A stretch of 62,928 nt of DNA, the filler included, from Stramenopiles sp. TOSAG23-6 (taxonomy: Eukaryota), in the NCBI GenBank assembly GCA_900128565.1. It is 44 parts of 44 records of this genome, joined end to end, with 100 filler letters (N's around TTAATTAATTAA, not from the genome) between each part and the next. Parts side by side here need not be neighbours in the genome. Positions count along the whole stretch, not along the records: positions 51,653 to 52,975 come from LT639241.1; positions 53,076 to 54,398 come from LT639242.1; positions 54,499 to 55,821 come from LT639243.1; positions 55,922 to 57,244 come from LT639244.1; positions 57,345 to 58,665 come from LT639245.1; 39 more parts are not named here. The stretch is one strand, 5' to 3'. This document shows positions 6,836 to 61,722 of the stretch, one piece after another (the first letter of the stretch is position 1; each line of letters opens with the position of its first letter). The notes beneath the pieces are model-generated. The model had not been told where the DNA came from, made no database searches, and was given only the letters and a program-made list of their open reading frames with translations. The position numbers and the translations under genes are program-made.

Positions 6836-7134
6836 TTACTGTTGTTTACACTGTTGTTCTCCATTTTCATCGTCCTTTATTTCATTTTTTTCGCCTGATG
6901 TCATCATGTATTTTGGAAAAATATTTCAAAAAAAAAAATCGTTAGGTACAAAATTTTTATAAAAAAAAAAATAAATTCGATTTTTTTGTAAAAAAAAAAA
7001 ATAAAACGTACATGTCATGGTTGTAGACAATATCAAATTGAGAGTCTAATAACGGTTCTCCACGAATCTTGTCTATTAATTTCATCGACTTATCTGTTAT
7101 GATGTTAGTGTCTGAAGAAACATTTTCTTTTTCT
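6836..7134 (-). CDS. 3' end of a hypothetical gene with one GT-AT family intron
   Basis: Removing the ~6906-7011 intron gives ..YNHDMMTSGEKNEIKDDENGEQQCKQQ-stop. Confidence 0.4.
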
Positions 7135-12419: not shown

Positions 12420-12529
12420 CATGTTATACAAAAATCACCTACATATACAAATGATCCTAATGAAGCATGTCTGTTTGTCCCACCTATTGATACTTTATGC
12501 CTATATGTATGTTTTACTTTTTTTCAATT

Positions 12530-12571
<42 letters not shown>

Positions 12572-12808
12572 TTTTTTCCTAAAAAATTTTAATTTTTTTT
12601 TTTTTTTTAGGATTTTTTTTTTTTTTTTTTTTGGTAAAAAAAATTTGTACCTAACAAAAATCCAATTGAAAATTTTATATTTTTTTTACATATAGGGTTC
12701 AGAGTAGCATCACACAAAAAGTATTGAGATCCGGTTATGACATTGCTTTTCCTCTATCATTTTATCGATGTCGTTTTACACAACAAACAGCTGAAAATCA
12801 AGAGGAAC
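12420..12808 (+). CDS. Exostosin (GT47) glycosyltransferase fragments
   Basis: Manual translation SPTYTNDPNEACLFVPPIDTLC and LRSGYDIAFPL matches EXT-family motifs. Confidence 0.6.
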
Positions 12809-13166: not shown

Positions 13167-14348
13167 ATGCAATTGTTTTTTGTGTGTATCGTCCATTCTA
13201 GAACAATTTGGTTTGTCTTTTAAGTCCCTCCAGTGTTCAGATGATGTTAATGTATTTTAGAAAAATATTTGAAAAAAAATCTAAAAAAATTTGTTAGGTA
13301 CAAAATTTTTATAAAAAAAAAAATTCATACAAAAAAAAAAAAAAATAAAACATACATTTTTTTTTGGCATGAATTGATTACACGAAATCAAAGCCATTCG
13401 AAATAGATCTAATGTTGGTGCAACACTTTTAGTACATTTTGTTGCCTCTTCATATAATTTTAAAACATTTTTCCAATCTTTTGAATATAGTAATACTTTC
13501 ATTGCATCACAATGTATTGTGAAAAAAATGTGAAAAAATTTAAAATTAGTTAGGTACAAATTTTACTATGAAAAAAAAATCGGTACATTTTTTTGTAAGA
13601 AATTAGGGTTAGGGTTAGGGTACATAGCTTTTCGTGTTGGGTATTATATTATTTTGTTTCATCGTTTCAAGAATATATAGAACTTTAGTTGTAGACGAAT
13701 TTCCAATTTGATTTGTATTAAAACCTAAGACTGATCGAATAGTCTGAAAAATTGAAATTGAATCAATTGTACCATTTAAATTACTAGGGTTAGGGTTAAT
13801 GTTGGACAATTCCAATTCTGATTTTTGTGCAAGCAACGCATAAGAATACGATGTAAGAGTAGGATTGATACCATTCGAAGTCATTTTTTTCAAAATTAAA
13901 AGAGCTTCATTTCCTTCACTAGCTCGAGCACATGCTTTTAGTGAATGATTAAACGTTTTAATATCAGGTTTTACTTTTCGAAATGCAGAGTCATATTTTG
14001 TGAAAAAATATTTCAATTTTTTTTTTAAATTAAAGTTAGGTACAAAATTTTCAAAAAAAAAAAAAATTTAAAATAAAATAAAATAAAATCGGACAACGTA
14101 CTAACTCCATTTGCCCAAGAATATCACGAGTCATCATCCAATCACCACAATCTGCAGAGATATTTAGAGATTCATTATACATACTTAACGAAGGATAGAT
14201 GCCTCGAGTTGACATTTGACCAAATATCCATGTAATTTTGAGAAAATTATGAAAAAATTAAATTTGTTTGTTAGGTACAACATTTTTTTTTTTCCGTAAA
14301 AAAAAAAAAATTAAAAAAAAAAAAAAAAACGTACAAGGAATGCCAACG
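13167..14348 (-). CDS. Pentatricopeptide-repeat (PPR) protein fragment, several exons
   Basis: PDIKTFNHSLKACARAS..EALLILKKMTSNGINP; MSTRGIYPSLSMYN; interrupted by family introns. Confidence 0.8.
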
Positions 14349-21535: not shown

Positions 21536-21709
21536 NNNNNNNNNNNNNNNNNNNNNNNNNNNNNNNNNNNNNNNNNNNNTTAATTAATTAANNNNNNNNN
21601 NNNNNNNNNNNNNNNNNNNNNNNNNNNNNNNNNNNTTTCNAATTTNTTTTTTTTTCGTACGAAATTTTGTACCTAACAAATTTCGAATTCAATGTTTTTT
21701 ACAATATAT

Positions 21710-22969
21710 GTTTTACGACCAACAACAACAGATGTTGACGGTAAGCAATCAAAATCACAAAATAATTTACCAACAAAACAAGAAGTTGTTGTATGGTTGA
21801 CTCTAACTTCACACCAACAAGCATTATATCATGCAATGCTTGAAAAGACACAAGAAGAACAAGATAGGAGAGACGATATCGCTGCAGAAAATGGAGATAT
21901 TGCCGAAGGAAGATGTATCTTAAAAGAATTATGTGAGCTAGTACAGATATGTAATCATCCTCTTCTTGTTGCTGAAAAAGAATTTGGTAAGAAAGATTTG
22001 TCAAGTTCGAAAGATGTCCATAGACGTGATAATACGAATCGTAAGTATCGCGATTTTGACATGTATTATGAAAATGATGAAAGTATTTCATCCAATAGTG
22101 ATAATGATATAAGAAATATTGAAATGAATAGAAATGTTGAATCGGATGTAGAGTCTGATATTGAAAACAAGAGACTTGAGGATGATGTGAAATCAAAAAA
22201 TGTACGTAAATTGTTATTATCGGCCTCGAGAAAAACACCTGCAAAGATTGAATTTGTTAGTGCTTTGTTACGGAATTTACATACTGAAGGGCACAGAGTA
22301 TTAATATTTAGTAGATCTTGTAGAATGCTTGATCTCATAGAGAATTTCGTACTTAAAACTGCCAAATATAAACATTATAGACTTGATGGAAGTATTCAAG
22401 ATGCATCAGAAAGAGCTCAGTTGATTGAAAAGTTTAATCGAAAAAAGGATATTTTTTGTTTTTTAATTACTACACAATGTGGAGGTGTAGGTATTAATCT
22501 AACAGGTGCCGATCGAGTCATTATGCTTGATCCTGGTTGGAATCCAGCAGCTGATGAGCAAGCTGTTGATAGAGTATATCGAATTGGTCAAACTCGGCCA
22601 GTATTGGTATATAGGTTAGTTACATGTACGTTTTCACATCATAAATTTATTAATTGTTTTTTTCATAGGAAATTTCGTACCTAATGATTTTTTTCATGAT
22701 TTCNTTTTTTTTTTCACAATACATGTGGTGGCGCAGAGGAACATATTTATAGACGTCAGATTTTTAAAGGATCTTTGAGTCGTTCAGCAATTGAGCAAGA
22801 TTTTAAAGCAACGAGACATGTATGTTTTACTTTTTTTGAATTTCAATTTTTTTTTCGTACAAAATTTTGTACGTAACAAAAAAAACAAAAAAAACATATT
22901 TTTCACAATACATTTCAAAGCAAAGTGTGGCAGTTCCAGTGGAGTCAAAGCAAAGTGTGGCAGTTCCAG
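21710..22969 (+). CDS. SNF2-family helicase C-terminal half (ERCC6/ERCC6L-like); copies in the next three contigs
   Basis: ICNHP, HRVLIFS, RLDGS, GGVGINLTGADRV, DPGWNPAADEQAVDRVYRIGQ; VYRLVTC|GGAEEHIYRRQIFKG restored across GT-AT intron 22626-22724. Confidence 0.9.
22626..22724 (+). mobile_element. Representative introner-like GT-AT intron (more than 50 core-motif copies in the window by eye count)
   Basis: GTACGTTTT...GAAATTTCGTACCTAAT...TTTTCACAATACAT; removal restores SNF2 VTCGGAEE. Confidence 0.75.
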
Positions 22970-27468: not shown

Positions 27469-28335
27469 ATAGGATAGAGTTGCACACAATACCCATTGCG
27501 CGTGCCCACGAAATACTGCTATTTCTTCACCAGTAGTAACATCCCACAACCGAGCGGTATTATCATTTGATGCTGAACAAATTAGAGTCCCATCAAATTG
27601 TATAAAAAAATATTTAAAAAAAAAATTGAAATTTGTTAGGTACAAAATTACCTACGAAATATTTTTTTTAAGCTAGGGTTAGGGCTTGTACTGTTTGAAT
27701 TTTAAAAGTGATTGTTGAAAAAATACTTGACTGAAACAGCAAGAATTGATTGGTTTTGAATGTCCTCTTAAAACACGAGTTGACATCCCTCCAGATGATT
27801 GCATTTTCCCTGTTTTAGGTCTCTTTGATTTTCTTGAATGTTTTAGTCTTGCCAAATATGACATTTTGGAATCTCGATTAGATGGGGGGGTTTTCATGTC
27901 AGTTGTTTGAGAAGATATTCTTTTCATTTCTGTTGATGTTGTAATACACGATTTCTCTTTTTTTGTTTCCTTTTCATCCTCTTTATCTTTATCGTTTACT
28001 TTATGTAATTTACATATACGTTCTCGGGACGGAAGCTTCCATAAACGAAGTGTCGCGTCTGCACTAGCAGAGACACAGAGTCCATTGATCGAAATGTCAC
28101 AATCAAGAACTTTTCCTTCGTGCCCTTGTAGTTCAAGTTTAGGAATTCCAAGTTTTTGTAAAGTTTCTAGTTGTGCTTTGGCTACAGCTACAGCTTTCTT
28201 CCGGATTGCGATTTCTCGTTTTGCTTGGATGACTGCGGCGGATTGCTTTTTAGGGGGTGGAGTATAGTTAATATCTCCAAAATATTTTGCTTGTTCCGCT
28301 TTACTAAGAAAACGCTGTGCGTTTCTATGTGACAT
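27469..28335 (-). CDS. WD40-repeat protein, 5' part
   Basis: [45 protein letters not shown]; intron 27598-27726. Confidence 0.9.
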
Positions 28336-28849: not shown

Positions 28850-29005
28850 AATGAATATCTCTATGACATTCAATTTGCAGTGAGTCTAGTAACGCAGTTT
28901 CATTCATGGGCTGATGTGTTGCACAATAAAACACGAAAAAAAGATTCTTTACAAAAAAATGAATTAGACAAAATATGTATATTTTCATCATGAATTTTAA
29001 ATGTA

Positions 29006-29036
<31 letters not shown>

Positions 29037-30031
29037 TTTTTAAATATTTTTTAGAATTGTTTTGAAATATTTATTCACAATTCATGTGTTGTATGTTTAC
29101 GTACAATTTTGTTTATAAAAGATCCTACAGGAGTAGATGGATCATCCGCAGCAACATTAGAAACTGAAACAATAGCTAATGAAAGTCCAATGCAAAACAT
29201 TTTAACTTGTGGTGAAATTATTTCTAATATTGATGTAAGTTTATTTTAAAATTTTTTTTTTTTTTTGTTTTAAATTTTTTAAATTTTTTAAATTTAAAAT
29301 TTTTTTTTTTGAAATTTTTTTTTTGAATTTTTTTTGAAATTTTTTTTGAAATTTTTTTGAAACTTTTGGTATAGTCGTATAAAAAAATATAAAAAGCTAA
29401 AGTATATATAAATGATTGAACTGATTGTACTAAAAAAATAAAAAAAAATGACATTTTTTTACATCATACATGCAACGCATCTGTCAATTGATCGTCAAAA
29501 TTGTTTGGTTGATTTGAGAGTATTAGAATTTTGTTTTGAAATTCTCGAATATTTACTAAAATTATGCCCATTATCATCAAATGATGAAAAAAATGGAAAA
29601 AATGGAAAAAATGAAAAAAATAATCATTTAATAAAATACGTACAAATTTTGTGTAGGAGTTTGTATCATGTTATTCATCACTCGTTTGAAGATAATACAC
29701 GAAATCAAAAATATTGTGCGCAATGGATGGAAGTTATGATTCGACAAATGCAATATAATATCGGTTCTGATAAATGCTTGACTGAATGTATGTTTTTTTT
29801 TTTTTTTTTTTTTTTTTTTTTGTTCGTAATTTTTTTCCCAACAAATTTTTGCTGATTTTTTTTTTTTTTTTTTTCGTACGTAATTTTGTACCTAACAAAT
29901 TGTACAAAAAAAAAAAATTTCACAATAAAGTAGTCGAAGAAAATCAAATTTTATTGGAACAAAAAATTAATGAAGACCATGTGAATTTATTTATTAATTT
30001 AATTAGAAAATATGGATTACGTCCTCATTAT
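28850..30031 (+). CDS. Inositol-1,4,5-trisphosphate/ryanodine receptor-type Ca2+ channel fragment (RIH domain)
   Basis: DRQNCLVDLRVLE, SFEDNTRNQKY, CLTELVEENQILLEQKI (cf. IP3R TALLHNNRKLLEKHI) after GT-AG intron 29788-29930. Confidence 0.75.
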
Positions 30032-30395: not shown

Positions 30396-31369
30396 GAAAC
30401 TATTCCTGCACCAAAAGTTGTATCCGATGCAACAATTGCAGAACTTAAAATGGTTCAAAATTTGGTCCAATCCGGAAAAGTTCCAAAATCAGCTTTCGTT
30501 GCATTATTAGAAACGCATGGCGTTGATGAAGATACAGTCAATGCGGCAATTGCTGCAAACTTGAAAAGTGAAAACCCTAACGCTAATGAATTGTCTTCAC
30601 AACAAAACAGAACAAATGAGGCAGTACACAATCAATCAAATTCAAGTGATGTGAAAACACTACTATCAACAAATTCATTGAGAGATTTACAAGGCCAAGA
30701 TGTTGAAATTCTTCGTCAACATTTAAAAAATGGTAGAATAAATCAAGCTCAATTTTCCCGCTTGGTTGATGGTGAATCAATGGGTCTTTCACGACGCAAA
30801 TCATTACGCAAATCACTACCTAAGAACAAATCAAAACGAAAAATTGCTAAAGAAATTGTCATATTTAAAGTCGGGGATGTACATTTTATTTTTTTCAAAA
30901 AAAAAAAAAAAAAAAAAAAAATTTCATAGTAAATTTTGTACCTAAAAAAAAAAAAATTTTCAAAAAAAAAATATATTTTTCACAATAAATGTTTTTTTTT
31001 TTTGGTAAAAAAATTTTTTACCTAACAATTTTTTTTTTTTTTTTTGGTAAAAAAATTTTGAAATATTTTTACAAAATTCATGGAGGCTGTTTACAAGTTG
31101 TTCCAGATTCTGAAACAATTGCAAGCTTACACCAAAGATATGAAGGCCAAGGTGGTTATAATTTTCTTTGGAAAAATTCAACTTTTTTGACTAAATTTTT
31201 AGAAGAGCATAACCCAAATGCAGAAGAATGGCCGAAAGTTGCAGATACTTTTAAACGATCCTTAGCCGGTTGTTGTGTAGCAACACATGTATTAGGCATT
31301 GGAGATCGTCATAATGATAATATTATGGTCTCTAAGAGAGGTCGATGTTTTCATATTGATTTTGGTCAT
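30396..31369 (+). CDS. Phosphoinositide 3/4-kinase catalytic domain fragment (PI3K-like)
   Basis: IFKVGD; FKRSLAGCCVATHVLGIGDRHNDNIMV..G..FHIDFGH. Confidence 0.9.
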
Positions 31370-31390
31370 GTAGGTTTTTTTCAATTTTTT

Positions 31391-31438
<48 letters not shown>

Positions 31439-31447
31439 AATTTTTAC

Positions 31448-31481
<34 letters not shown>

Positions 31482-31790
31482 CTTCAATTTTTTTTTCATA
31501 GTAAAATTTGTACCTAACAAAAAAAAAAAAAAATTTCTTCAATTTTTTCACAGTACATAAATTAATCAAACAANNNNNNNNNNNNNNNNNNNNNNNNNNN
31601 NNNNNNNNNNNNNNNNNTTAATTAATTAANNNNNNNNNNNNNNNNNNNNNNNNNNNNNNNNNNNNNNNNNNNNACAAAAAAAAAAAAAAAAATCGTTTCA
31701 ATTTTTTCGAGAATCAAACTATACGGATACACTCTCTTATTAAGGTAAAGAAGATACATTGTTTGATCACAATTTTGAAACAAGTAAACA

Positions 31791-34540: not shown

Positions 34541-35869
34541 TTGTATTTTTTGTATTTTTTGTATTTTTTGTATTTTTTGTATTTTTTGTATTTTTAGACT
34601 CTTCAAACAATATTTTATTATTGAAAAATAATTCAAAATCAAAAGTTTTTTGGTTTTCTTCGTGAAATGACGAGACAAAATCATTGCAAATTTTAACTGC
34701 AGAACAATGTAAAAGAGAAATTCTCTGCAATGGATTCATACTATTATTCATAATATCATTATTACTATTTGTATTATTCTTACTATTTGTATTATTATTA
34801 TTATTATGATTTGTATTATTATTATTATTTGAAGTATTATTATTATTATTATTATTATGATTTGTATTATTATTACTATTTGTAGTATTATTATTATTAT
34901 GATTTGTATTATCATTACTATTTGTATTATTATTATCATTTGTAACATATTTACTATTTGTAGTATTATTATTATTATTTATAATATCTTGTTTTTTTAC
35001 TAAAGAAATTTCCATTATTCCATTCTTCACTGTTATAAAACGACAATCCCAACGCATAAAATAACAGGGATATTTTTTCAACAAAATTCCTTTTTTATAT
35101 AGTGTTGATAAAGACAAATCAGCTTTATTTGATACTGAAACAGCGTTGTGGTTTTCGTGTTTTTCGTGTTTTTCGTGTTTTTCGTGTTTTTCAGCGTCCA
35201 TTGATTTTGAAACAGAGGATTGTTTTTGTGCTACGACTCGATGCAAAGTGAAATCGGATATTCGTACTTCTTCCTCTTCGTTCTGTAGTATGAAAAAATA
35301 TTTCAAAAAAAATTTTTTTAGTTTCAAAAAAAAAATTGTTAGGTACAAAATTTCCTACAAAAAAAATATTTCCAAATTTTTTAGTTTTTTTTCAAAAAAA
35401 AAATTGTTAGGTACAAAATTTCCTATGAAAAAAAAAAATAAAACATACATTTTCATAGCGCACAGCGACATCTCCATCACTACAAAATTCAATAATTTCA
35501 GCGACTCGTTGTGAATCCAATTGAACATTTTCTTCATTTACATCAAATACAAAGACAAATTGACCAAGTTTTAAGTTGTTTTTTTTTTCATTTACATTTT
35601 GATCATTATTATTTTTAGTATTATTATTACAACGAATAGTATCAATATCATCAATTTCATCATCAATAGTATTATCAATATCATCAATATCATCAATGCT
35701 ATCATCAACATCATCAATATCATCATTAATATCATCAATATCATCAATATCAACATCATCAATATCATCAATATCATCAATACTATCATCAACATCATCA
35801 ATATCATCATCAATATCATCAATATCATCAATATCATCAATACTATCATCAACATCATCAATATCATCA
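34541..35869 (-). CDS. Low-complexity (Asp/Ile- and Asn-rich) protein fragment with possible PH-like segment
   Basis: KKGILLKK...WDCRFITVKNG; long Asn and DID microsatellites; exon structure uncertain. Confidence 0.35.
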
Positions 35870-36116
35870 NNNNNNNNNNNNNNNNNNNNNNNNNNNNNNN
35901 NNNNNNNNNNNNNTTAATTAATTAANNNNNNNNNNNNNNNNNNNNNNNNNNNNNNNNNNNNNNNNNNNNAAAATTTTATAAATTTCAAAAATTTTTTTTT
36001 TTTTTTTTTTTGTTGTTAGGGGTACAAATTTTTATAATAATTTTTTTTTTTTTTTTTTTTTTTTGTTGTTGTTAGGTATAAAATTTCATACATTTTTTTT
36101 TAATAATAAATACGTA

Positions 36117-37167
36117 CATGAAGAGGTTATAGCAGCTACTCCAATTCCAATGTCTGTCAAAATTTTACACAAATCACCATATAATGTACATTTATTTTTA
36201 GAAAATATTTCAAAAAAATCTAAAAAATTTTGTTAGGTACAAAATTTCGTACGAAAAAAAAATTCTATTTTTTTGTAAAAAAAAAAAAAAAAATTGTTAG
36301 GTACAAAATTTCGTACGAAAAAAAAATTCAAATTTAAAAAAAAAAAAAATAAAACGTACAATGTGTGATTAACTGATCGTTATCAAAATTCAAAAACATA
36401 TCAACCATATTATGAGGCACTTCGCACCAAATACGAATTTCTTGCAAAATTTGAAATTTTATTTTTGGTAAACTTTCAGATGAATGTAGTATTGGATAAA
36501 TTGCTTTTTCCCAAAGAACAGCCAATTCAATTTTAATAAGAGCACGAAATCGGTTCCATAACACACTAAGCAGTTTTGTTCCTTCAGAAAATATGGGTAA
36601 TAATGTTTTTGTTACACATGTACTTTGTAACTATATATTATTATTCTTTTTGTTATTGGTTAGTTGGTTGGTTAGGTACAAAAAAATTAAATTTCAAAAA
36701 AAAAAAAATTTTAATAAATTTCAAAAAAAAAAAAAATTGAAAAAAAATTGAAAAAAAAAAAAAAATTGAAAAAAAAAAAATTTTAACTTTAAATTTCAAA
36801 AAAATATTCAAAAAGACTACATACATGACAAAGATTTCCCAACAACAAGAATAGCCATTCGACGTACACACAAACAAAAACGCCTTGAAGAACAAAAAAC
36901 ATCACCACTATCATTTAATGTATTTTGGAAAAATATTTCAAAAAAAAAATTTTAGAAAAAATTGTTAGGTACAAAATTTTTTTACCAAAAAAAAAAAAAA
37001 TTTCGATTTTTTTTTTACCGGAAAAAAAAAAAAATAAAACATACATAGCTTTGCTATACCACGAATTACGCAGGTTTTCAATTCAATATCTTCAGATAAA
37101 TGTGTTGTTTGACTTGCTAATTTCCAAATTGAATTTTGATCAACTGGATGAGGATGAGGCCAATGTC
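36117..37167 (-). CDS. Sec7 Arf-GEF (BIG/GBF/MON2 family) N-terminal region fragment; duplicate contig at 37398-38725
   Basis: LWNRFRALIKIELAVL...P..MVDMFLNFDND (HUS-box-like); five or more family introns. Confidence 0.65.
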
Positions 37168-40252: not shown

Positions 40253-40858
40253 AAACAAATGTAGCATCTTTCATCAAAGAGCTTACATCTGAAGAATTTC
40301 GAGAGGCGGTTCCTTCACGAGCCGCTTCATTCATATTTACACGAAAAGGTGGACCATTATATTGTGATACAATGCAAATGTATTCTTTTTTTTCGTACAA
40401 AATTTTGTACCTACCGAATTTTTTTTTGAAATATTTTTTCACAGCACATAGTAGCTATTTTTACCCCTATTTGTAAATTTCTATCCGCTGTTGGTAGCGC
40501 TATACAAAAAGGTTTTATAGCATGTTGCAAGGCAATCAATTCCTGCTATAAAGCAGTGTATGATAACATACTTAAACCGATTGGAAATGGGATTTATTGT
40601 GTTTACTTAGCAATTTGGACTTCAATATTTAAACCTCTTTTTGGCGCTATTGCGACATGTGGACGGGCAATCCGTGACAATATTCTTGTGCCTATTCGAG
40701 ACAATGTGCTTATACCTTTGCGTGAAATGATAAAAAAAGTTTTAAGTGCAATAGCCAACGCAATTAAAGCAGTGCTAAATGCAATAGCCAACGCAATTAA
40801 AGCAGTGCTAAATGCAATCAGCTCAGTATTTTCGGCAATTGGAAAAGCACTAGGCTAA
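40253..40858 (+). CDS. Hypothetical protein C-terminus with amphipathic repeats, one AT-ending intron
   Basis: Frame joins across ~40380-40449; IKAVLNAIANA tandem repeat. Confidence 0.5.
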
Positions 40859-43104: not shown

Positions 43105-44429
43105 AGTACAGTTAATGATTTGTTAATTTGTTTTGCTTCCATAAATCGTTCCCCTTTCACACCCTTTTTTTATTGAAATATACCAAATAAAATGTTTTTG
43201 TTGATATTAGGTACAAAATTTCGTATGAAAAAAAAATGAAAAAAAAAATTAAAAAAAATTGTTAGGTACAAAATTTCGTATGAAAAAAAAATGAAAAAAA
43301 AAAAATTTAAAAAAAAAATTAAAAAAACTTACACTTTTTCGTGTTCTCTCAGATCCAGCTAAATCAACAAAAAGAAACTGTTGCCTAATTAAAATCCGTG
43401 GATTTCGTGTACTTTCGTTTTTTTCTGAGTATTTGTTTTTGGTAGAAAAACTTGTAAGATGAAGTTTAACAAGGCAGTGTGATCGAGACGAATGATCATT
43501 CAGTTTATGACCAGCAGAACGTCTTGATACAATATTTAAAAAAAAAAAAAAAAAAAATCGTTAGGTACAAAATTTCGTACGAAAAAATATTCNAAAAANA
43601 TTCAAAAAAAAAAATCGAAAAAAAATCGNAAAAGATGTTGAAGAACATANATGCTTCCACATGCATTACAAATTGAGCAACATCAGTCTCATTTTTTATC
43701 GGCCANAGTTTTTCACCGACAGTCGCAAANTNTCTATTTTTCGTGTCTTTCTGATTTTGAGTCAAAGTATTTAAATTTTTTGAATTTTTTGAATTTTTTG
43801 AATTTTTTGAATTTTTTGAATTTTTTAAATTTTTTGAATTTTTATTCTTACATTCTAAAGTTAACCGACTTTTTGCTTGAAAACAACGAAAACATTGACA
43901 TGTAGAAGGATGTGCAAAATCACCNCCACCTGTTGTTCTGTGATCTCTTGCTCCGAATTCGCATGTTTAGTAAAAAAAAAAAAAATCAAATATTTTTTGT
44001 TAGGTACAAAATTACCTACAAAAAAATTTCGAACAAAAAAAAATTGAAATTTGAAAAAAAAATGAAAAAACGTACAACCACCTCCTCGTACCACAACTGT
44101 ATTTCTAGGTTTCGTTCTGGATATTTGTAATGGAGATGAATCATTCAGCAAATCATATGCCACATTATTGTATACTTCAATCGCAGTGGCCTGTAATGTT
44201 GCACCATTTGCTACGTTGGATCGTAGCAAAGAAAGAGCTATGCGAGGTAAAATTCCCCATGCATTTGGCACATTTTTAACATTTGGAACATTTTTAACAT
44301 TTTGCACATTTTTAACATTTGGCATACAAACACTATCTTTAGCACTACTCTTAAGCGCCGATTCAGTAAGACAACCTTTTGGTCCAAACATTGTGTACGT
44401 CTTGCCAGAACCTGTCTGTCCGTATGCTA
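43105..44429 (-). CDS. Kinesin motor domain fragment; duplicate contig at 44530-45854
   Basis: AYGQTGSGKTYTMFG, EVYNN.AYDLL, NDHSSRSH, FVDLAGSER, INKSLTVL across three introns. Confidence 0.92.
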
Positions 44430-45954: not shown

Positions 45955-46831
45955 TCTCGAGAAAACCTTTTTATAAGACTTTAGTCTCAAATCAAATGAA
46001 AAATCAAGGAAATTGTCAGGAGAATTCCACAACTTTTATTCTAGCACCCATTGAACGATACTCGTATGTATGTTTTCAATTTCGAATTTCAACTTTTTTT
46101 TTTTTTTTTCATACGACATTTTGTACCTAACATTTGTTTTTTGATTTTTTTGTTTTTCACAACACATTGGATGCCAAAGTGGGCTGTGGACAGACCTGTA
46201 TATGTTGAAAGTGACGGAAAACATAGTCCGTTTTTAAGTTCATGGTTTATTCATATACCCGATTTATCTTTAGATACAAATAGTACAATTTCAATATATG
46301 ATTCTTTAGATGCCATTTCACAAGGTAAACAAATTAATGGAGTCAAAAGTGAAGAAAATAGTACTCAACAAATTCAAAATTCGTTAGGTACAAAATTAAC
46401 TACAGAATCTCAAGATTCAATTTCGAATTTGCAAATTTCTGATCCTCTCATCAAAAGAATGAAATATTTATTGAACAATAATAAAAGACAATCTTGGGTC
46501 GTTGCTCGAACATGTAAAGGAACAAAATGGAAAATTCAAAAACAGGACAAAATGATTCAACGTGCTCCTAACTCTAAAAATCATAAAAATCATAAAAATC
46601 ATAAAAAAATAGTAAAGATAAATCAAATGAAACATCGCAAAAATCGATTACGATTACCTAAACATTTGCGTGATGTTCGAACAAGACAAAATGTAAGAAA
46701 TCATAAAAATAATAAAAATGAATTTCTTGCTGTTTTACATAAAAAACGAAAGCACAATAGTAACCCTGACAAGAACAAGAACAAAACAAAAAAAACAAAA
46801 AAAACAAAAAAAACAAGAAAAAAAAAAAAAA
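45955..46831 (+). CDS. Hypothetical Lys-rich protein fragment, one family intron
   Basis: Open frame after acceptor CACAACACAT at ~46167; no domain recognised. Confidence 0.35.
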
Positions 46832-48856: not shown

Positions 48857-50036
48857 ACTCTCTTTCGAGATTCGCACACCAAGGGGATCAATATCAAAAA
48901 CAAAGCGCATTGAAGGTAAAACTTCACTTTTATCTTCATCGTTTTTATCATTATTTGTAACGTAATATGTATGCGAATCTACAGTATATTGAAAAGTGTT
49001 GTAAAACCTTTCCCATAATGATTTATTATACACCAATGAAAATTTCTTCAAAAATTCACTATTTTTGACTAATTTCATCAGTTGAAATGGAATTGTGTAT
49101 CCTTGAATTTCTGTTTGTACTAGTTTCAAGTAATGTTCGTAGGATTCATTTTTCTTACTGACAAAATTTTGCCCACCCAAAGCATTCATATTTGGTCTAT
49201 TTGGCAAGGTATCTCGAAAGTGAAGACTTGATTCAGAACTTTCATGTACTGTGAAAAAATAGAAATACTTTTTAAATGTTAGGTACAAAATTTACTATGA
49301 AAAAGTTTTTCGAAAGTCAATTTTGAAAACGCACATGAAGCATTTGAGCGTGATCGCCAAATGTTAAATATTCAATTGTGTGACTCATATCAACCTCCTC
49401 ATCGTTAAAGTCATGCCATGGTGAATAAACAGTAAACAAAAGGGATCCCGGTACTAATGATGCATCAAAATGACCAGTAACTTTACATCCAGGCTCCAAC
49501 TTTTCAATTTCAGGTTCTAATCGCCTCTGCTTACCTAAGTGTTTTTTGGAAAATCTTTTCTTCTTTGTTGCTCTGTTGAGAGCTTTCTCAAGAGATGCCA
49601 TGCCAATCAACGCCTCGTCACGCAATTTTGCTTTTTCTGAATCATTTTCATTCAATTTTTGAAGCGTTTTTTCTGAGCTTTCATTTTTATCATTTTTTAA
49701 ATACGTCCTATATTGAATTTCTTTTTTACATTCTGATAAACAAGTAAAGGGATCATGAGGGCACAAAGATTCCTTGGCTCGAATAGTTTTCCCATCAAAA
49801 ACACATTCACAATATCCTGAATTGCCGGTTGGGACTGTCGATGTACAAATACGATCGTTGTCTGGTTCTGGGTGCCCAGAGGGATCACAACCTGCAGTTT
49901 GTCGCCAAGCAATGCATTCTTCTGTTTGTGTTTTTTTAATATTGTCTTCACCAAATTCTTTCGATTCGATAAACTTTGGATCATCTTTCAATTTGGGCAG
50001 ACTATCTATTTTCCTTATAAATGCTGAGACAGTGCG
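48857..50036 (-). CDS. ERGIC/Erv41-Erv46-type ER vesicle protein (COPII-coated ERV C-terminal domain) fragment
   Basis: PGCKVTGHF..VPG, DMSHTIEYLTFG, YEHYLKLVQT, FQYT, LPSMRFVFDIDPL; GT-AT intron 49244-49334. Confidence 0.85.
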
Positions 50037-50407: not shown

Positions 50408-51447
50408 TGTAGAGTTGAAACAAAAAATTTGATTACAGAAATTTTACATTTATTATTTAAAAACAAATTAAATAAAACAAACCTGTCCCATCTACGGACG
50501 GCCTGGGGAAGAATTGCAATTGAAAGCCTTACGACAATGCAAAATACAAAAAATACAAAAAATACAAAAAATACAAAAAATGAATATGAAGATCAGTACA
50601 GACGAAATTCGTATAGTATGCTTATCTACCGGATTATACAACCTACATTTCAGTGCCAGGTTTGTTCCACACTGATTCAAGAATTACATAGTGCTGTATT
50701 GAATGGATTTTCAACATCATCTCAAGTATCCTCGAATAAGTATGTTATTTTTTGTAGGGTTATTCCTACTAACCCAAAATTATGTCAAATATTAAAAAAA
50801 AAAAAAAAAAAAAACTTTTTTTTTTTTTTTTTTCGTAGTAAATTTTGTACCTAACCAATTTTTTTTTTTTTTTTTCACAATATAGATTGTCATTCACAAA
50901 AAATACAAAACGTGATCTGAATAACCCTAACCCTACGCTAAATATAGACTGTAATAATATCGAATATAAAAATACTAGAATTATTATTGATATTCTTAAA
51001 ACAATGACAGTATTAGCTGATGAAGCAACAGGTACGATACTATTATTTATTTTTTTTGAAAAAAAACTTTTTTCATAGTAAATTTTGTACCTAACAAAAT
51101 GTTTTTTTTTTTTTTTTGAATTTTTTGAATTTTTTTTTTGTCATACGTGCAGTAATATAAAATACTCAAAATACAATTTTAAACTCTGTACAATATTTTC
51201 TTGCACATTACATCAACAGATTTGATTACTTACCCACAATTGCTATGGACTTCTTGTGCACTATTGTTAGCGTGTAACCCTAACCCTAACACGAAATCGT
51301 CTTTTATGCCTTCAAAATCACAAAAGGACATTATCTATCCTACTCTTTCTCTTCTTTCAACTATTATAAGAAAATCTGATTTAAAATCACCATTAGCTCG
51401 ACAAGTTGCATTAGCTACTTTACCTAAACATTGGAGAAATTCACAAT
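50408..51447 (+). CDS. Furry/Tao3/MOR2-PAG1-like fragment (exon structure unresolved)
   Basis: LRTAWGRIAI and YPQLLWTSCALL resemble the MOR2-PAG1 C-terminal region. Confidence 0.45.
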
Positions 51448-51652: not shown

Positions 51653-52975
51653 TTGTTGTACTATTTGCCATACAATTTCTAACCATTGTATGAAAATTGG
51701 AGATACTTCAGTTTCATCTGCATCAGCACCACTATGACCACATCTATGATGAAACATATGACCAAAACTGCACCATTCTTTTTCAATAAGCACAGCAAAA
51801 CCATCGAGAGTTCTATAAAATGGATCTAAAATAAGTTGTGCAGTGGCACACAACTGAGTTGTTCTATCCCATCCATCACTACAATGGACAACACAAGCTG
51901 CACCTCGTTCTAATCTACGAGCAATTCGTACAGCACCATTTAATAGCATTGAAGTATAATAAGGCCATTTTGTATTGGATAATGCGACTAACCAATTCAC
52001 ACCAGAATTGTTTGTTGAAGTCGTCACAGTGTCTTCTAAAGATCGTCGGCGATTCACCAAAAATCCACCACTCGCTGAAATTGGTTCATTCATTGTTTGT
52101 ACTCTTGTTCGAGCCTGTGCTTGTACACCAGCGCTTTCAGCCAGGCGAACAACTGCTTTATGACTCGTTCGTATTGCATGTATTCTAAAACAATATTTCA
52201 AAAAACAATGAAATTCGTTAGGTACGAAATTTTCTTTGTACAACAAATGGTACAGTAATAATGAAATGTACATGAATATTATCAATATCAAGAAAATGAA
52301 CCTGTGCTACTTGTTTTCCACCGAGAAGATTAATCGCTTCATATCCTCGGCCAGCGACGGCATTCGCTTGTGCTGCCAATCGTGATCTAGCATCAAATAT
52401 ATGTAGTGTTTCACATGGCTCAAGAGAAGTAGATACATTCCTATTACCACCTACACCAGACCCCGCATGAAGAGAAATTTCTGCAACTTGCTCAGGAGTT
52501 TTTTTGGCAACTGTTGATCGAATTGCTTGTAATAAAAGTGTATCATAAATCAATTTTCTTCCAATGACACCTGCAAGTGGCTGAGAGCAACGACAAAGTG
52601 GTGCTCCATTGGTAGGATGCAACCAAGTGAGCGCTGGTAATCTACGTTTAGCTCTCTCAACAGCCGCTGCTCTTAAATTACTTTTGACAAATGACCGTGG
52701 AAAAGCGAGTTGAGATGGATACGTTGGACAAATACTATAATCATTGTTAATATCCGTAACAACCCATTTTGGATTACCATGAAGACCAATTCGTCTATAA
52801 TCTCGAGATAATCTTTGTCCAAGTTTGCCAGTGTTTGATTGTTTGTTTGCTTGTTCTTTTTGTATAAAACGATTCGTACTTGATGATATTGAATTTTCTA
52901 AACGATTACTTTCAGGTGATATAAAAGACACACCTTCTGATACTATTGATATATTTTTGTTTTTTTAATTATTTT
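51653..52975 (-). CDS. Myotubularin-family phosphoinositide phosphatase fragment
   Basis: CPTYP, RCSQPLAG, IDNIH|AIR across GT-AT intron 52178-52271, VHCSDGWDRT, LIEKEWCSFGH.F. Confidence 0.95.
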
Positions 52976-53075
52976 NNNNNNNNNNNNNNNNNNNNNNNNN
53001 NNNNNNNNNNNNNNNNNNNTTAATTAATTAANNNNNNNNNNNNNNNNNNNNNNNNNNNNNNNNNNNNNNNNNNNN

Positions 53076-54294
53076 CCTGCTGTGATACATGTAGATGAGG
53101 ATATATCAACATTTTCATCATGGGCGGAAAATATTTGTGATTTATTATTATCAACAGAAAAGAAACACAATGAAAATATTGTCCATTCTACTAAAAAAAT
53201 TGACGAATTAAAATCTGAGTTTGCATTCACAGCATTAGCAGAGTACAGTGCATCGCAATTTCAATATAAAGAAAATGTTGAACATCAATTATTACATGAA
53301 AAATATGAAATAGAAAAGAAAAAAAATCAAAGGACAATTAAAAATCAACAAACAAAACATATGAAAAAAATGGAATATTTAGAATTTGAAGTTAAAAATG
53401 CCAAATTTGAACTAGAACAAGCAAAGACAAAATTAAAAGAAACCAATATTGTACATGATGAATTTGAAGCTTTTAAACAAATGTCTGAAAATTCTTTTGA
53501 AACATTGAATTCAGTCATGATTAAAGAAGAAAAAGCATGTACGATTTTATCATACATTTTTATATTTATTTATTTTTCGTACGAAATTTTGTACCTAACG
53601 ATTTTATTCTTCAAATATTGTTTTTAATTGTACATGTAATGATGCTATGAATTGTCTTGAAAATGAATATAAAAATGTAATTTATTCTGAAAATGAAATA
53701 CAAGAAAAGAATAAAAGATATGAAAATGAAATAAAAAATGTAATTTATTCTGAAAATGAATTACAAGAAAAGAATAAAAGATATGAAAATGAATTACAAG
53801 AAAAGAATAAAAGATATGAAAATGAAATAAAAAATGTCACTTTACTTTTGAGTAAAGAACGTGCAATTGTCGATACAACATTCAATGAAAATATACAACA
53901 AAAACAACAGTTACAAAACAATAAACAAAAGATTACAACACTACAAGAAAAAATACACGAAATGGAGATGTCTATGGATACTAAAACACACGAAATCAAT
54001 GAAATACATACGGAAACAATCCGAAAACATGCAAATCAATTAAAACATATCAGTAAACAATCCATCGAGTCATTAAACAAATTCAAAATTCATCATAAAG
54101 ATGAAAAAATGAAATTAATTCATCAAAATACAATTTTACATGAAAAAAATACACGAAATCAAAATAAATTGTATGAATTGAAAAATATTTGGATTACGAA
54201 TAAAAAAAATACACGAAATAGTGAGACAAAGTTAAATTATAATTTTAATGCTTGTGAAAAAACTCTTGAAGATTTAGAAAATATTTTTCATTAA
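53076..54294 (+). CDS. Coiled-coil protein, 3' part, one GT-AT intron (~53539-53635)
   Basis: Heptad-rich E/K/Q/N frames join as EKAC|NDAM; tandem ENELQEKNKRY repeats. Confidence 0.6.
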
Positions 54295-54567
54295 TCACAT
54301 GATATCAATGAAATATATATCAATTTATATAAAAAAAAAATTTTTAATTAGTAGGAGTAAAAGAGTCAATTTATTTTTTGAAAAATAAAAACAAGGAANN
54401 NNNNNNNNNNNNNNNNNNNNNNNNNNNNNNNNNNNNNNNNNNTTAATTAATTAANNNNNNNNNNNNNNNNNNNNNNNNNNNNNNNNNNNNNNNNNNNNTT
54501 TTTCATACGAAATTTTGTACCTAACAAATTTTTTTTTTTTTTTTTTAAATATTGTCTACAATTTGTT

Positions 54568-55401
54568 GTCCAATTAGAAACTACAAATTTTGTAGAACCG
54601 TTAAAAGATTATATTGGTATTACCAGGTCTGTCAAGGACATGCTCAATTGTCGAAAAACAAAACAACTTGCATATCAGTCTGCCGTTGCTGATTTGATGC
54701 GGTCTGAAAAATCCTTACAGGAGTTGAAGAGTAAAGGCGGTTAGTTTTCATTTTTTTTTTTTAAATTTTTTTTTAAATTTTTTTTAAATTTTTTTTAAAT
54801 TTTTTTTTTTAATTTTTTTTTAAATTTTTTTTTCAATTTTTTTTTCAATTTTTTTTAAATTTTTTTTAAATTTTTTTTTATAGATACAATTTCATATCTA
54901 ACAAAACAAGTTTTACAAAACAAATGTAATATTTTTCTACATTTCATGTGGTGGAGCCAGTCACCAAAATAAAATTCAACAAGCTAATCTAATTGTTGAA
55001 AGTTCAAAATCAAAACAAAACGAGACAAAAATTGAACTTGAAAAAGTTGACTCGAGGGTTCAAATTGAAATGAAACGATTTCGTGCAGAGAAATTGGTTG
55101 CATTTCGTGATATGATTACAACATATGTAAAGAAGCAAATTGCATATCAGACCAAGGTTGTTGATACATGTAAGTTATGTTGTTTATTTTTAGAATTTTC
55201 ATTTTTAGAATTTTCATTTTTAGAATTTTAATTTTTAGAATTTTTTTTTTTTTTTTTTTTTTTTAAAAACGAAATTTCATACTTTTCAATTTTATACTAA
55301 AAAACAATATTTAAAAAAAAACATGGAATGGTTTACTACCTGAATTAGGTGATGAAAAGAAACATGATGATATTCAATGCCATGAAGAGACTGATGTCTA
55401 A
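54568..55401 (+). CDS. Sorting nexin (Vps5/SNX1-2 BAR domain), last exons
   Basis: FVEPLKDYI..SVK, EMKRFRAEK, and VDT|WNGLLPEL restored by GT-AT introns 54740-54947 and 55170-55324. Confidence 0.8.
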
Positions 55402-55549
55402 ATTTTATAAAAAAAATATTTTTGTAGTAAATACAAAATTTTTTATAAAAAAAAAAATTAAAAAAAAATTCAAATGTTCAATTTTTTTTTTTTTTTTTTA
55501 TAAAAAATTATTGTTTTATTTTTCAATACTATTTTTTAAAATCTTGTTT

Positions 55550-55708
55550 TCAATAGTGTGTAACTGCATCAAAGGATTCACGAATTTTTTCATATGTAAC
55601 AAAGAACAAAACTGTCCAAAATACTTTGCGTTGGAATAGAGGGATAAATCCTTTATATAAAGCCATTGGCCCTTCACGTCTTGGTATGTTTATAGCAGCA
55701 TCAAGAAC
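55550..55708 (-). CDS. Mitochondrial carrier (SLC25), last exon
   Basis: REGPMALYKGFIP...FFVTYEKIR. Confidence 0.8.
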   Translation of the reverse strand, partial: VLDAAINIPRREGPMALYKGFIPLFQRKVFWTVLFFVTYEKIRESFDAVTHY

Positions 55709-56685
55709 ATATATTGTGAAAAAATATTTTTTTTTGTACAATTTCGTATTTGTTAGGTATCAAATTAAAAAAAAAAAATGTTGAAAAAAAAAATTTAAAA
55801 AAAAATTTTAATTTTTTTTTTNNNNNNNNNNNNNNNNNNNNNNNNNNNNNNNNNNNNNNNNNNNNTTAATTAATTAANNNNNNNNNNNNNNNNNNNNNNN
55901 NNNNNNNNNNNNNNNNNNNNNGGGGCGGGGAATGGGGTTACTTTTTCGAGCCGGTTTTTTTTTTTTCTTTTTGGAGAACCCCCCCGGGAATCCCCGGGAA
56001 TCCCGGGAATCCGGTAGTGATACAATTCGGCTAAATATAAAAAAGGGGTTCATGAAAGTGCCCGATCTTTTGAAATGACGCATGCACGAGCCTACCCTTT
56101 GCGGTAGTTGACTGCTCTGGGTTCATTTATCGNNNNNNNNNNNNNNNNNNNNNNNNNNNNNNNNNNNNNNNNNNNNNNNNNNNNNNNNNNNNNNNNNNNN
56201 NNNNNNNNNNNNNNNNNNNNNNNNNNNNNNNNNNNNNNNNNNNNNNNNNNNNNNNNNNNNNNNNNNNNNNGGGGCGGGGAATGGGGTTACTTTTTCGAGC
56301 CGGTTTTTTTTTTTTCTTTTTGGAGAACCCCCCCGGGAATCCCCGGGAATCCCGGGAATCCGGTAGTGATACAATTCGGCTAAATATAAAAAAGGGGTTC
56401 ATGAAAGTGCCCGATCTTTTGAAATGACGCATGCACGAGCCTACCCTTTGCGGTAGTTGACTGCTCTGGGTTCATTTATCGTGTTTCGTCTCAAACAGCG
56501 AAGCTGTGGCGAGCCATGGATGAGCGGATTGTTGTCGAAATGCAGTGTCTAGCTGCAAAACTCAAGGACCTTGGACAAATTGATTCTCGCGTCACAAATG
56601 TTGCGCAGGACCTAAAAACCCTGTCACGCTTGGTTTCAAGTGGTGGGCACGTAAGGCATCAATCAATTGAGCCTATCGCTTCCAA

Positions 56686-57244
56686 TCAGCAGACGAGTGC
56701 GCTGATGCAAGCCCCAACAAAGACAGCAAATATCCCAAAAATTACGCCCGCGAGAATCTCCATCGGGAGTGATGCTGCGGCAGGTGGTGGCACGGGCGTC
56801 GTGGGCGCGGACGTTGGCGAACCTGTCACAGGAGACGCAGTGGGACTGTCGGTCGTTGGGCTCAGCGTCGGAGACTGGGTGGGTGAGTATGTGGGAGAGA
56901 CTGTCGAGGGCGACAAGGTCGTCGGGCCCTGCGTCGAAGGTGACGCTGTCGGGGTCACAGTTGTGATATCTTCGATCCGGCGGATGGCCGGAATCGGCTT
57001 GACCTGCGTCACGTACAGCACTGGCGTAGGCGTCAAAGGGTCGTAGGTCATACTCTGGACATATTTAAAACTTGCGTTGAGTCCGATGCCGTCGCGAATA
57101 TTCTCCTGACCTTCGCGTACAATTGATGTGACCATCCCAGAATCAAAATCGACGGCCCTGACGCCCCGATTTGTGGCAACGTACGAAACATTACGCGACG
57201 GTATAGATATGATACCCTTCGGTAAGCCAAATAAGGCACTCGAA
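56686..57244 (-). CDS. Mucin-like PTxSP-repeat membrane protein, C-terminal part
   Basis: TASPSTQGPTTLSPSTVSPTYSPTQSPT followed by a TM helix; GC-richer contig. Confidence 0.6.
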
Positions 57245-57672
57245 NNNNNNNNNNNNNNNNNNNNNNNNNNNNNNNNNNNNNNNNNNNNTTAATTAATTAA
57301 NNNNNNNNNNNNNNNNNNNNNNNNNNNNNNNNNNNNNNNNNNNNATTTTTTTTAGATTTTTTTTTGAAATATTTTTTCACAATACTTGCTCTTTCAGGTA
57401 AGAAAAATCGTACGAAATGTCGTACACAAACAACTGACATGTTTGGTGGGCTCTTCATTCGGTAAAATGAAAAAATGAAAAGAAGAAAATATAGAATTTG
57501 TTGTACGATTTTTTATTGATATTTTCATACTTTGTATCCAGTGTAATGATACTATAATAACCAGCGAAAAGGTAAAAATAGTAATAAAAGTTTGCCTTGA
57601 TTATATAAATACCTTCTACCTTACAATGCGTTCATTTGGGTATTATATGAAAGGTACTGTTTTGTCTACTAC

Positions 57673-58666
57673 TTACGAAAGCATCCTCTTTATGTCCTCT
57701 GTGGAGTACCTAAGGTTGCTTGAGTGTATAGCCTCTGCAGTAAACGAATTATTAGATGCACGGAGATATTTGGTATGATTATTTTCACTTCTCCTTCCTG
57801 CGCATAATTCCATAGCTTCATCGTAATACATTTCTAATTCGCTCATAACATCAATCCAACTTGGGATTAATTTTGAATACTCAGAAGTGTCTTTTTTCAT
57901 TTTTTCTAATTCCTCCGGATGATCCCTGACATAGGCTACTTTTTTCTTGAATTCGTACGGCGTGGGTTCCACAAGATATCCGTCAAACTTATCCAATACG
58001 GTATCTACGATTCCTCCGGCATTAACAAGTATTGCTGGTAAACCAGCACTCATGGCTTCGCGTACGACGTTACCAGCCGTTTCTGCAGTACCTGGAAACA
58101 CAAATACATCTGCACTCGCATACACTTTACTCAACTCTTTTCCAATAACCATGTATTTTGGAAAAATATTTCAAAAAAAAAATAGTTAGCCTTAGGTATT
58201 CAAAAAAAATCTAAAAAAATATGTTTGGTATAAAATTTTTTACCGGAAAAAATAAATAAAACATACATTCCTAAAAATAAAGTTCCTGTGCCTTCAAATA
58301 GCTTCTCTAGAGCAGGCCTCTCGGGACCGTCACCAGCAACGACAAGCTGTACTCCATCCAATTTGGCAACATCAATCAAATATTCTATGTGCTTCTCAGG
58401 AGCAACGCGACCAACGTATAACGCAATAAGTGTATTTTCTGGGTCACTTCCGTTCAGCATCTTTGCGCGTTCATTCTTATCGAAATGTTTCGGATTAAAT
58501 TTGTCATGATCCACGCCTCTCACCCAAAGTCGTTGATCCTGAAAGCCATGACGTCGAAGCTTACGCATCATGAAGTGGCCAGGTGTCAGAGTGATCGTAG
58601 CCATTGAGTGCAGCGTGCGAAGATATCTCCAAAGAGTGCTAGTAATGAGAGCAAAATTATACTCAN
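57673..58666 (-). CDS. GT4 glycosyltransferase (SQD2/PimA-like), 3' part
   Basis: RGVD..F.P, LYVGRVAPEK, GDGPER..LE, FLGM|VIGKELSKVYASADVFVFP..ET.G.VV.EAMSAGLP; GT-AT intron 58151-58266. Confidence 0.9.
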
Positions 58667-61448: not shown

Positions 61449-61722
61449 GTACGTGATACTACTACCATTCTCTACTATAATTAACTATGTTTTATATTCT
61501 ATATTTTNNNNNNNNNNNNNNNNNNNNNNNNNNNNNNNNNNNNNNNNNNNNTTAATTAATTAANNNNNNNNNNNNNNNNNNNNNNNNNNNNNNNNNNNNN
61601 NNNNNNNAGGTCCATGAAATGTCAAAATATATTTCAAAATTTGAAATTTGTTAGGTACAAAACTATCTATGAAAACAAAATAGGTAAAAACTTCATAATG
61701 AATACAACGTACATGTTAGTGC

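Follow-up and report, generated by a model that had tools for sequence, protein, structure and literature searches.

The contigs of Stramenopiles sp. TOSAG23-6 (GenBank assembly GCA_900128565.1), analysed here as one joined stretch of 62,928 bases (the window), carry a repeated family of introns which begin with GT and mostly end in AT. Few signals of eukaryotic genes are as constant as the AG that closes their introns, and only a handful of lineages are known to depart from it on a large scale. According to our interpretation, to which we give an even chance, these introns are an introner-like family of spliceosome-type introns, whose acceptor nAT (n, any base) stems from a target-site duplication of three nucleotides. 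The evidence that carries this interpretation is the repeated nature of the family, the reading frames that join at GT...A(T/G) borders, and a match between upstream exon and intron end at a variable position next to the fixed splice bases.

A repeated intron family

Members of the family share one build, which reads exon (C)AT^GTAYGTTTT (the caret marks a splice border), a T-rich stretch, a box ending in TACCTAAC and then CACAATACAT^G exon. The branch box TACCTAAC is strong and its branch A lies 31-56 nt upstream of the 3' end; about 40 T-rich bases, often with GAAATATTTTT, separate the box from that end, and the terminal box is a conserved CACAATAC. Introns were curated by coordinates, which yielded 57 introns in 46,639 unique bases (about 1.2 per kb), namely 34 complete ones of 70-208 nt, 14 with the 5' end only and nine with the 3' end only; the junction counts refer to 48 5' junctions, 43 3' junctions and 34 pairs. 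Excluded from the statistics were eight duplicate contigs, a foreign contig (55922-57244), five mutually dependent repeat-unit introns with ambiguous ends in a leucine-rich-repeat (LRR) gene at 60187-61507, further copies at 12420, 59900 and 43650 (first base N), four cut copies (66, 27402, 47000 and 51538) and the late find 29235-29471 (GAT^GTAAGT...CATACAT^G).

That these introns are copies of each other is indicated by several observations. A 20-mer from the middle of the intron was matched 65 times with three or fewer mismatches, where 0.05 matches were expected, and in an all-against-all blastn 409 of 561 intron pairs matched as opposed to 13 for shuffled copies, though the 409 may be inflated by T runs. 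Exact GTACCTAAC sites fall inside curated introns on the sense strand in 42 of 50 cases, and most of the other eight belong to uncurated introns. The host genes are unrelated to each other (among them myotubularin, kinesin, SNF2, PPR, GT4, SNX and ERGIC). Of the curated introns, 23 of 57 end at contig ends or N runs, a pattern that assembly breaks within a high-copy repeat would produce. For the contig tested against seawater runs (54499-55821), an intron piece of 38 nt at 55707-55744 was matched by hundreds of different contigs and reached a depth of about 1580 in one run; it is at the 3' junction (55707-55712) that the seawater contigs diverge. Scans with the 20-mer gave no match in metagenome contigs and none in viral contigs, and 596 billion bases of prokaryote genomes held a single exact match (contig L001, 401-420, of a metagenome-assembled genome of Bacteroidales), which was taken as chance, about one such match being expected. 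In five introns (2127-2291, 35283-35448, 36190-36359, 43164-43332 and 29788-29930) the branch module is doubled in tandem, 50-70 nt apart, which may reflect an internal duplication or the insertion of one copy into another.

Intron borders

Borders were checked by a frame test, which asks whether the flanking reading frames join at GT...A(T/G) in comparison with the +1 and +2 joins, with values in codons. Where ends had been set by motif alone, 13 of 14 rows judged evaluable by us were in frame at GT...A(T/G) but out of frame at the +1 and +2 joins. In the curated set this was true of 27 of 29 evaluable introns, a count that is not independent because the frame helped to choose some of the ends; the exceptions were 13250..13355 and 27597..27691, and the flanks of five further introns were too short. 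In the former, a homopolymer length error is likely, because the intron directly follows an exon run of nine A. The myotubularin gene offers a further check, as the alignment of its upstream exon to MTMR2 runs as far as ...NIH and is carried on by the following exon free of gaps; therefore the junction is fixed at CAT^GTACAT...AATACAT^GCA. The first-pass annotation of the window had read this intron on the plus strand, but the gene lies on the minus strand, while the direct repeat described for it is real; since the ends are palindromic, both strand readings resemble GT...AT. A search of the PDB for the GT4 junction left one of the exons without a match.

The same frames bear on the proposal that the true borders lie two bases upstream and are AT-AC, be it of minor type or of AT-AC major type. 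Such a register is open to 22 of the 34 complete introns, with AT at both ends, and the branch box is loosely like the minor-type box in the parts of Larue et al. that treat it. However, four frame-validated introns (13993..14101, 36190..36359, 51032..51213 and 54740..54947) cannot be read as AT-AC, which leaves GT-AT as the sole register fitting all introns. None of the 48 donors resembles RTATCCTT, the distance of the branch A from the 3' end speaks against a U12-type intron, and the AG-ending members share the same build; we therefore regard AT-AC borders as very improbable.

Junction composition

Introns start with GT at 47 of 48 5' junctions and with GC at one, the first six bases being GTATGT in 20 and GTACGT in 11. 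At the 3' junctions, AT is found in 36 of 43 cases, AG in five and TT in two; ACAT ends 24 introns, position -2 is A in 41 of 43, and the first base of the next exon is G in 27 of 43 (p 1e-10). Tested as U2-type introns, the family shows a GT donor, a CTAAC-like branch site and a T tract, but an AG acceptor in those five cases only. About five in six introns thus carry an AT end alongside a textbook donor and branch site, and compared with GT-AG introns it is the last base alone that differs (U instead of G), a difference shared by the final base of the exon upstream. Judged by sequence, the AG-ending members appear to be these elements after a change of their final base.

As had been proposed in the first-pass annotation, upstream exons mostly end in (C)AT. 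AT closes the exon at 33 of 48 5' junctions, the last three bases being CAT in 16, AAT in eight and TAT in eight, as opposed to a background of 0.104 in flanking exon sequence (binomial p 9e-22) and of 0.127 before exonic GT (p 4e-19). An enrichment of exon-terminal AT, on which that earlier proposal depended, was thus found against either background. The described inversion was likewise confirmed, as the 5' junction (C)AT^GTAY and the 3' junction ATACAT^G are reverse complements of each other.

Direct repeats and the match at position -3

The five direct repeats that had been named at the junctions are all present: TACATGT at 22621/22720, CATG in the myotubularin gene, CATG in the ERGIC gene (49334-49244), ACATG in the SNX gene (55170-55324) and ATG in the GT4 gene. 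Both junctions carry CAT^G, and the palindromic nature of CATG and ACATGT allows them to be read as a direct and an inverted repeat at once. The contiguous junction repeat measures 2.76 nt within introns and 2.72 nt when junctions are cross-paired (p 0.40). Complementarity of the ends amounts to 3.82 versus 3.68 matches of 10 (p 0.15) and hence is not intron-specific; no covariation was seen between intron positions +4 and -6, and the table of exon AT against intron AT (22/3/7/2) gave a Fisher p of 0.59. The symmetry is mostly an effect of the consensus, as repeats of 2-7 nt and inverted ends follow from the two consensus sequences alone. The short terminal inverted repeats (TIRs) that had been suggested find no support in these tests, the ends being explained by a palindromic consensus.

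A position-by-position comparison of matches within and between introns was made by the method of Gozashti et al. The ratio was 1.0 at -2, -1 and +1, and 1.66 at -3. The third-last base of the exon equals the third-last base of the intron in 21 of 34 pairs as compared with 12.9 expected (permutation p 1e-4), and in 16 of the 27 frame-validated introns as compared with 9.45 expected (p 5e-4). Where intron position -3 is other than C, it matches the exon base in all seven cases (four with A in both places, three with T, no cross case). Several off-consensus pairs of exon and intron ends are one base apart (TAT with TAG, AAT with AAG, CAG with CAT, ATT with AAT, CTT with CAT), and the acceptor AT falls within the matched triplet. 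The covariation suggested earlier was thus seen at -3 and not at -1 and -2. The idea of an AT-containing target duplication fares in the same divided manner: the repeated family and the match at -3 speak for it, the run lengths and the constant -1 and -2 against it.

One flanking repeat stands apart from these, as CAACAG occurs at 51026-51031 and 51214-51219 on either side of intron 51032-51213 and would remain in the messenger RNA. This geometry is a single case, and across all introns no enrichment of it was found.

Origin of the AT acceptor

Under the interpretation we favour, the element, each copy of which carries its own donor GTAYGTTTT, branch box TACCTAAC, T tract and terminal box CACAATAC, would have been inserted as a DNA element at (C)AT^G-like sites with duplication of three bases. 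One copy of the duplication would most likely be the NAT triplet that closes the upstream exon, and the other the nAT triplet with which the intron terminates. Once everything from GT through the second copy is spliced out, the element and one copy would be gone and the message restored. The acceptor dinucleotide would be mostly AT because it is supplied by the insertion target, and both junctions would look like direct and inverted repeats because the target consensus (C)AT^G is palindromic. The major spliceosome would have to tolerate U at -1 provided that -2 is A, and later drift may have turned intron position -3 into C and -1 into G in some copies. A wider proposal, which we put forward tentatively and as somewhat less likely than not, is that GU-AU and not GU-AG is the default intron type of a free-living marine eukaryote, that a burst of a NAT-duplicating introner family made the AT acceptor, and that the identity of the 3' splice site was reset throughout the genome by a mobile element rather than by an altered spliceosome.

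A number of points weigh against this origin. Two RNA runs were compared with contig 54499-55821 only, and no exon joints were found; one run gave nothing and the other only intron pieces, with patchy cover. No empty site was found either, and at the one locus where a seawater contig spans an exon-intron border (55531-55733) the intron is present. No TIR beyond the consensus and no copy outside genes was seen, and a transposase was absent from the 43 open reading frames (ORFs) scanned of 141 listed. The signal at -3 rests on the seven informative introns, among them 27597..27691 with its ambiguous ends, and it was found after the negative run-length tests; allowing for about 15 tests it still stands at about 1e-3. 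Exon and intron differ at -3 in 13 of 34 pairs, the intron base being C in all 13, so that a later change, or a subfamily carrying its own CAT, is needed. The exon end is not AT in nine introns, and since seven of these still end in AT, positions -1 and -2 act as a fixed signal and not as a copy of the exon end. The match over -4 to -6 is not significant (37 versus 32.4, p 0.11).

Several of these points would suit an origin without any duplication, in which CAT^G acts as a proto-splice site where introns spread or are retained, and either junction simply reflects strict signals of the lineage, a local form of CAG^G; AT at the exon end would then be selected for donor recognition, e.g. through a changed U1 or through U5 contacts. 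Fixed signals of this kind agree with the equal matching at -1, -2 and +1, with the run-length and Fisher tests and with the AT acceptors kept behind non-AT exon ends, and matches explained by consensus alone count as ambiguous in the passages of Gozashti et al. on this matter. What they do not predict is the locus-specific match at -3, all else being explained, and the conserved spacer beyond the signal positions, the doubled modules and the assembly breaks point to repeated copies. We consider this origin, the strongest of the rivals, unlikely, with a share of probability that deserves to be reckoned with. RNA-mediated spread, in which reverse splicing would place excised introns at CAT^G in transcripts before they return to DNA as copies without duplication, would account for copies that are sense-oriented and genic and for a preferred site equal to the ligated-exon consensus, and a proposal of this kind exists for introners of fungi (passages in Gozashti et al.); it predicts no match between exon and intron at -3 and seems improbable to us.

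The strict form of the first-pass annotation, a classical miniature inverted-repeat transposable element, i.e. a non-autonomous DNA transposon with true TIRs and a variable duplication of 2-7 nt, has in its favour junctions that are palindromic over 6-7 nt and the repeats themselves. However, repeat length is the same within and between introns, end complementarity is not intron-specific and +4 and -6 do not covary, so that TIRs of 6-10 nt or more are not in evidence; the 'TIR' moreover takes in exon bases, and just 3-4 nt of it are left after a 3-nt duplication has been subtracted, and the copies observed are sense-oriented within genes. We deem it slightly less probable still than spread through RNA. 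The first-pass annotation had also considered that pairing of the two ends defines the 3' site. The junction words CAUGUA and UACAUG can pair, and folding predicts about 2.9 end-to-end pairs per intron as opposed to 2.4 with shuffled interiors, which is weak. Against cut sites set by RNA pairing, as in euglenids, diplonemids or Amoebophrya, and against elements that are instead cut out of the DNA, stand the lack of compensatory change, the conserved borders, which differ from those of nonconventional introns, the donor, branch box and T tract of ordinary spliceosomal introns, and the presence of the same intron sequence in the DNA runs. Both versions have a very small chance in our estimation.

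Should the acceptor have been copied from the insertion target, a direct test of how a non-canonical splice code arose would come within reach, and the freedom of the second catalytic step would show, the penultimate A being kept in 41 of 43. Standard gene finders would mis-annotate nearly every gene here. Introner surveys, in the parts of the literature at hand, take annotated introns as their point of departure and discard a family whose ends are unfamiliar if RNA support for it is lacking; such a family in an unannotated, fragmented assembly would escape them.

Introns of the window

The introns are given by coordinates and strand, with frame-test values for the GT...A(T/G) join versus the +1 and +2 joins.

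1700..1806 (+): GC...AT; frame 82 vs 21, 20
2127..2291 (+): GT...AT, doubled branch module; frame 85 vs 30, 30
2534..2627 (+): GT...AT; frame 56 vs 35, 10
3129..3215 (+): CRAL/TRIO gene, GT...CCAT; frame 77 vs 9, 14
6906..7011 (-): GT...AT; frame 22 vs 6, 11
12507..12695 (+): GT...ATATAG (AG end), exon end TAT; frame 61 vs 29, 9
13250..13355 (-): GT...AT, out of frame by one base, beside A9 run; 7 vs 10, 35
13512..13623 (-): GT...AT, (CCCTAA)3 directly after the donor; frame 76 vs 8, 6
13993..14101 (-): PPR gene, TTA^GT...ATAT, AT-AC reading impossible; frame 52 vs 7, 9
14230..14334 (-): CTT^GT...ACAT; motif only, flank too short for the frame test
22626..22724 (+): SNF2 gene, 7-nt repeat TACATGT; frame 49 vs 16, 7
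22820..22913 (+): GT...AT; motif only, frame test indecisive
27597..27691 (-): intron-like copy with ambiguous ends; out of frame, 4 vs 52, 41
28977..29085 (+): GT...TCAT; frame 50 vs 9, 25
29788..29930 (+): GT...AAAG (AG end), exon end AAT; frame 64 vs 2, 11
30879..31081 (+): PI3/PI4-kinase gene, GT...TCAT; frame 139 vs 35, 45
31370..31558 (+): GT...AT; motif only
35283..35448 (-): GT...ACAG (AG end), doubled branch module; frame 140 vs 29, 29
36190..36359 (-): ATT^GT...AAAT, doubled branch module; frame 33 vs 9, 6
36618..36824 (-): GT...AT; frame 42 vs 25, 30
36918..37044 (-): GT...AT; frame 32 vs 12, 12
40380..40449 (+): shortest intron (70 nt), GT...AT; 41 vs 7, 38 (weak)
43164..43332 (-): kinesin gene, AGT^GTAAGT...AAAG (AG end); frame 19 vs 8, 12; the motor motif expected there opens the following exon (matched by eye)
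43963..44075 (-): kinesin gene, GTT^GT...ACAT; motif only, Ns block the frame test
46068..46167 (+): GT...AT; frame 37 vs 22, 12
49244..49334 (-): ERGIC/ERV gene, CAT^GTGCGT...ACAT^G; frame 133 vs 18, 9
50740..50885 (+): TAA^GT...ATATAG (AG end); frame 63 vs 10, 12
51032..51213 (+): CAG^GTACGA...TTACAT^CAACAG, AT-AC reading impossible; frame 63 vs 5, 19
52178..52271 (-): myotubularin gene, CAT^GTACAT...AATACAT^G; frame 175 vs 28, 11; MTMR2 alignment
53539..53635 (+): coiled-coil gene, GCAT^GTACGA...TGTACAT^GTA, 6-nt junction repeat; frame 154 vs 4, 6
54499..54562 (+): cut intron, 3' part at contig start, end CTACAAT; junction set
54740..54947 (+): SNX/Vps5 gene, GCG^GTTAGT...TTTCAT^G, left boundary unambiguous; frame 80 vs 13, 6; a closer CTACAT end would break the frame
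55170..55324 (+): SNX/Vps5 gene, ACAT^GTAAGT...AAACAT^G; frame 24 vs 5, 13, up to the stop codon
55709..55821 (-): cut intron, 3' part at contig end, end CACAATATAT^G; seawater contigs diverge at 55707-55712
57345..57387 (+): cut intron, 3' box, end CACAATACTT, one of the 2/43 TT ends; curated
58151..58266 (-): GT4 glycosyltransferase gene, AAT^GTATGT...AATACAT^G; frame 132 vs 9, 6
61614..61712 (-): CAT^GTACGT...TTTCAT^G, at contig end; motif only

Two cut copies (1493-1506 and 57374-57387) end in CACAATACTT rather than ...ACAT, and a T-rich ...CAG, a possible alternative acceptor, follows a few to 30 bases downstream. Telomere-like CCCTAA/TTAGGG repeats occur within introns and nearby non-coding DNA (13512-13623, 27597-27691, 50600-50950), in one case directly after the donor as GTA and three CCCTAA units; the unit overlaps the branch-box word CCTAAC. 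The LRR-like gene at 60187-61507 consists of units of about 170 nt, each with an intron-like segment starting with GTACGTGATA and ending near ATATAG. The family branch box is absent from these segments, and the frame test did not settle their ends.

Contigs, genes and source organism

The window consists of 44 contigs, each of 1,321-1,349 bases, ordered by length and joined by N44-TTAATTAATTAA-N44 linkers. Because of duplicates (two sets of four and two pairs), eight contigs are redundant and 36 unique ones remain; the duplicated sets lie at 15888-21535 (four copies), 21636-27271 (four), 35970-38725 (two) and 43105-45854 (two), and differ in scattered Ns only. Contig 55922-57244 has a G+C content of 52%, as opposed to 21-41% in the remaining, AT-rich contigs, and is probably foreign, from another organism. 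It contains a stretch of about 210 nt in two copies flanking an N run, one of the two ORFs scanned in it, 56689-57243, matched no family in Pfam, and it may be the source of the small word shares found in many marine runs. The span 52178-58266, to which the first-pass annotation had been attached, is not one locus, as four joints and this foreign contig lie inside it; it reaches from the outer end of the myotubularin intron to that of the GT4 intron.

The sequence was recovered in two small runs of an organism designated by a code, and between 17 and 35% of sampled window words were present in seawater DNA runs, which argues for a marine eukaryote as the source. Pfam identified in the ORFs of the window myotubularin, kinesin, SNF2 helicase, PPR, PI3/PI4 kinase and CRAL/TRIO, furthermore a sorting nexin of Vps5 type (SNX), an ERV/ERGIC protein and a GT4 glycosyltransferase. 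The nearest relatives of the SNF2 protein share 31-37% identity (alignments covering at least 85% of the query), so that no close sequenced relative was found, and the protein atlas and homologue search yielded no close lineage. A scan of the window against Rfam gave no match, and hence no small nuclear RNA for comparison. A weak match of ORF 41984-42349 to the splicing factor cwf18 (E 5e-5) lies below the Pfam cut-off, and the coiled-coil gene contains tandem repeats of about 60 nt within its coding sequence (53680-53830).

Comparison with known systems

The classical proto-splice site is (C/A)AG^G. The introns described here agree with it in the likeness between exon end and intron end and in the G after either junction; they differ in that T replaces G at -1 in both places. 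Open-access text, among the matches listed, held no description of GT-AT as a main intron class. None of the systems compared below unites a GT donor in nearly all introns with a strong branch box and with AT as the main class of acceptor.

Nonconventional introns of euglenids and diplonemids, in the sections consulted, have no conserved borders and an extended pairing of their ends, whereas borders are conserved and pairing is weak here. In Physarum an expansion of U12-type introns with a proposed TA duplication has been described in the available part of a preprint (Larue et al.). Inverted ends and the idea of a dinucleotide duplication are common to both cases, and GT-AT makes up 17% of the non-canonical introns of Physarum; however, Physarum differs from the present family in its minor-type donors, in a branch point 10-12 nt upstream of the 3' end and in the rarity of GT-AT. 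Amoebophrya, as far as the passages of Farhat et al. (2021) go, likewise has repeated transposon-like introns, with direct repeats of 3-5 nt over the borders and ambiguous borders, but inverted repeats of 8-20 nt form hairpins there and the end dinucleotides are unfixed, whereas here the ends are fixed and long inverted repeats are absent.

The commonest acceptor of Fritillaria borealis and F. pellucida is likewise AT (34% and 44%, respectively), in introns that were annotated with a penultimate-A rule and ascribed to non-autonomous transposons, according to the portions seen of a preprint (Soo et al., 2025). AT acceptors, a penultimate A that is kept (41/43 here) and a marine habitat are shared. 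In contrast, the 5' ends of Fritillaria introns are mostly non-GT (AG/AC and AG/AT classes) and its splice sites are said to be TIRs, while GT donors (47/48) and a strong branch box prevail in the present family and non-GT 5' ends do not characterise it.

Introner families with their own 5' site and a 3' site recruited from the duplication have been described, mostly from marine protists, and a locus-specific match of the flanks serves as the criterion for a target-site duplication, as the relevant passages have it (Gozashti et al., 2022). The present family differs from these in that the duplicated bases provide an AT and not an AG acceptor (36/43), in that the signal of duplication is confined to one variable position, and in that no RNA junction was seen for it. 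It resembles them, to the extent that those passages describe them, in being a high-copy family in unrelated genes of a marine protist with the donor inside the element, in an acceptor that would lie in a short duplicated target, and, going by seven informative introns, in a probable locus-specific match at a variable position beside fixed splice bases.

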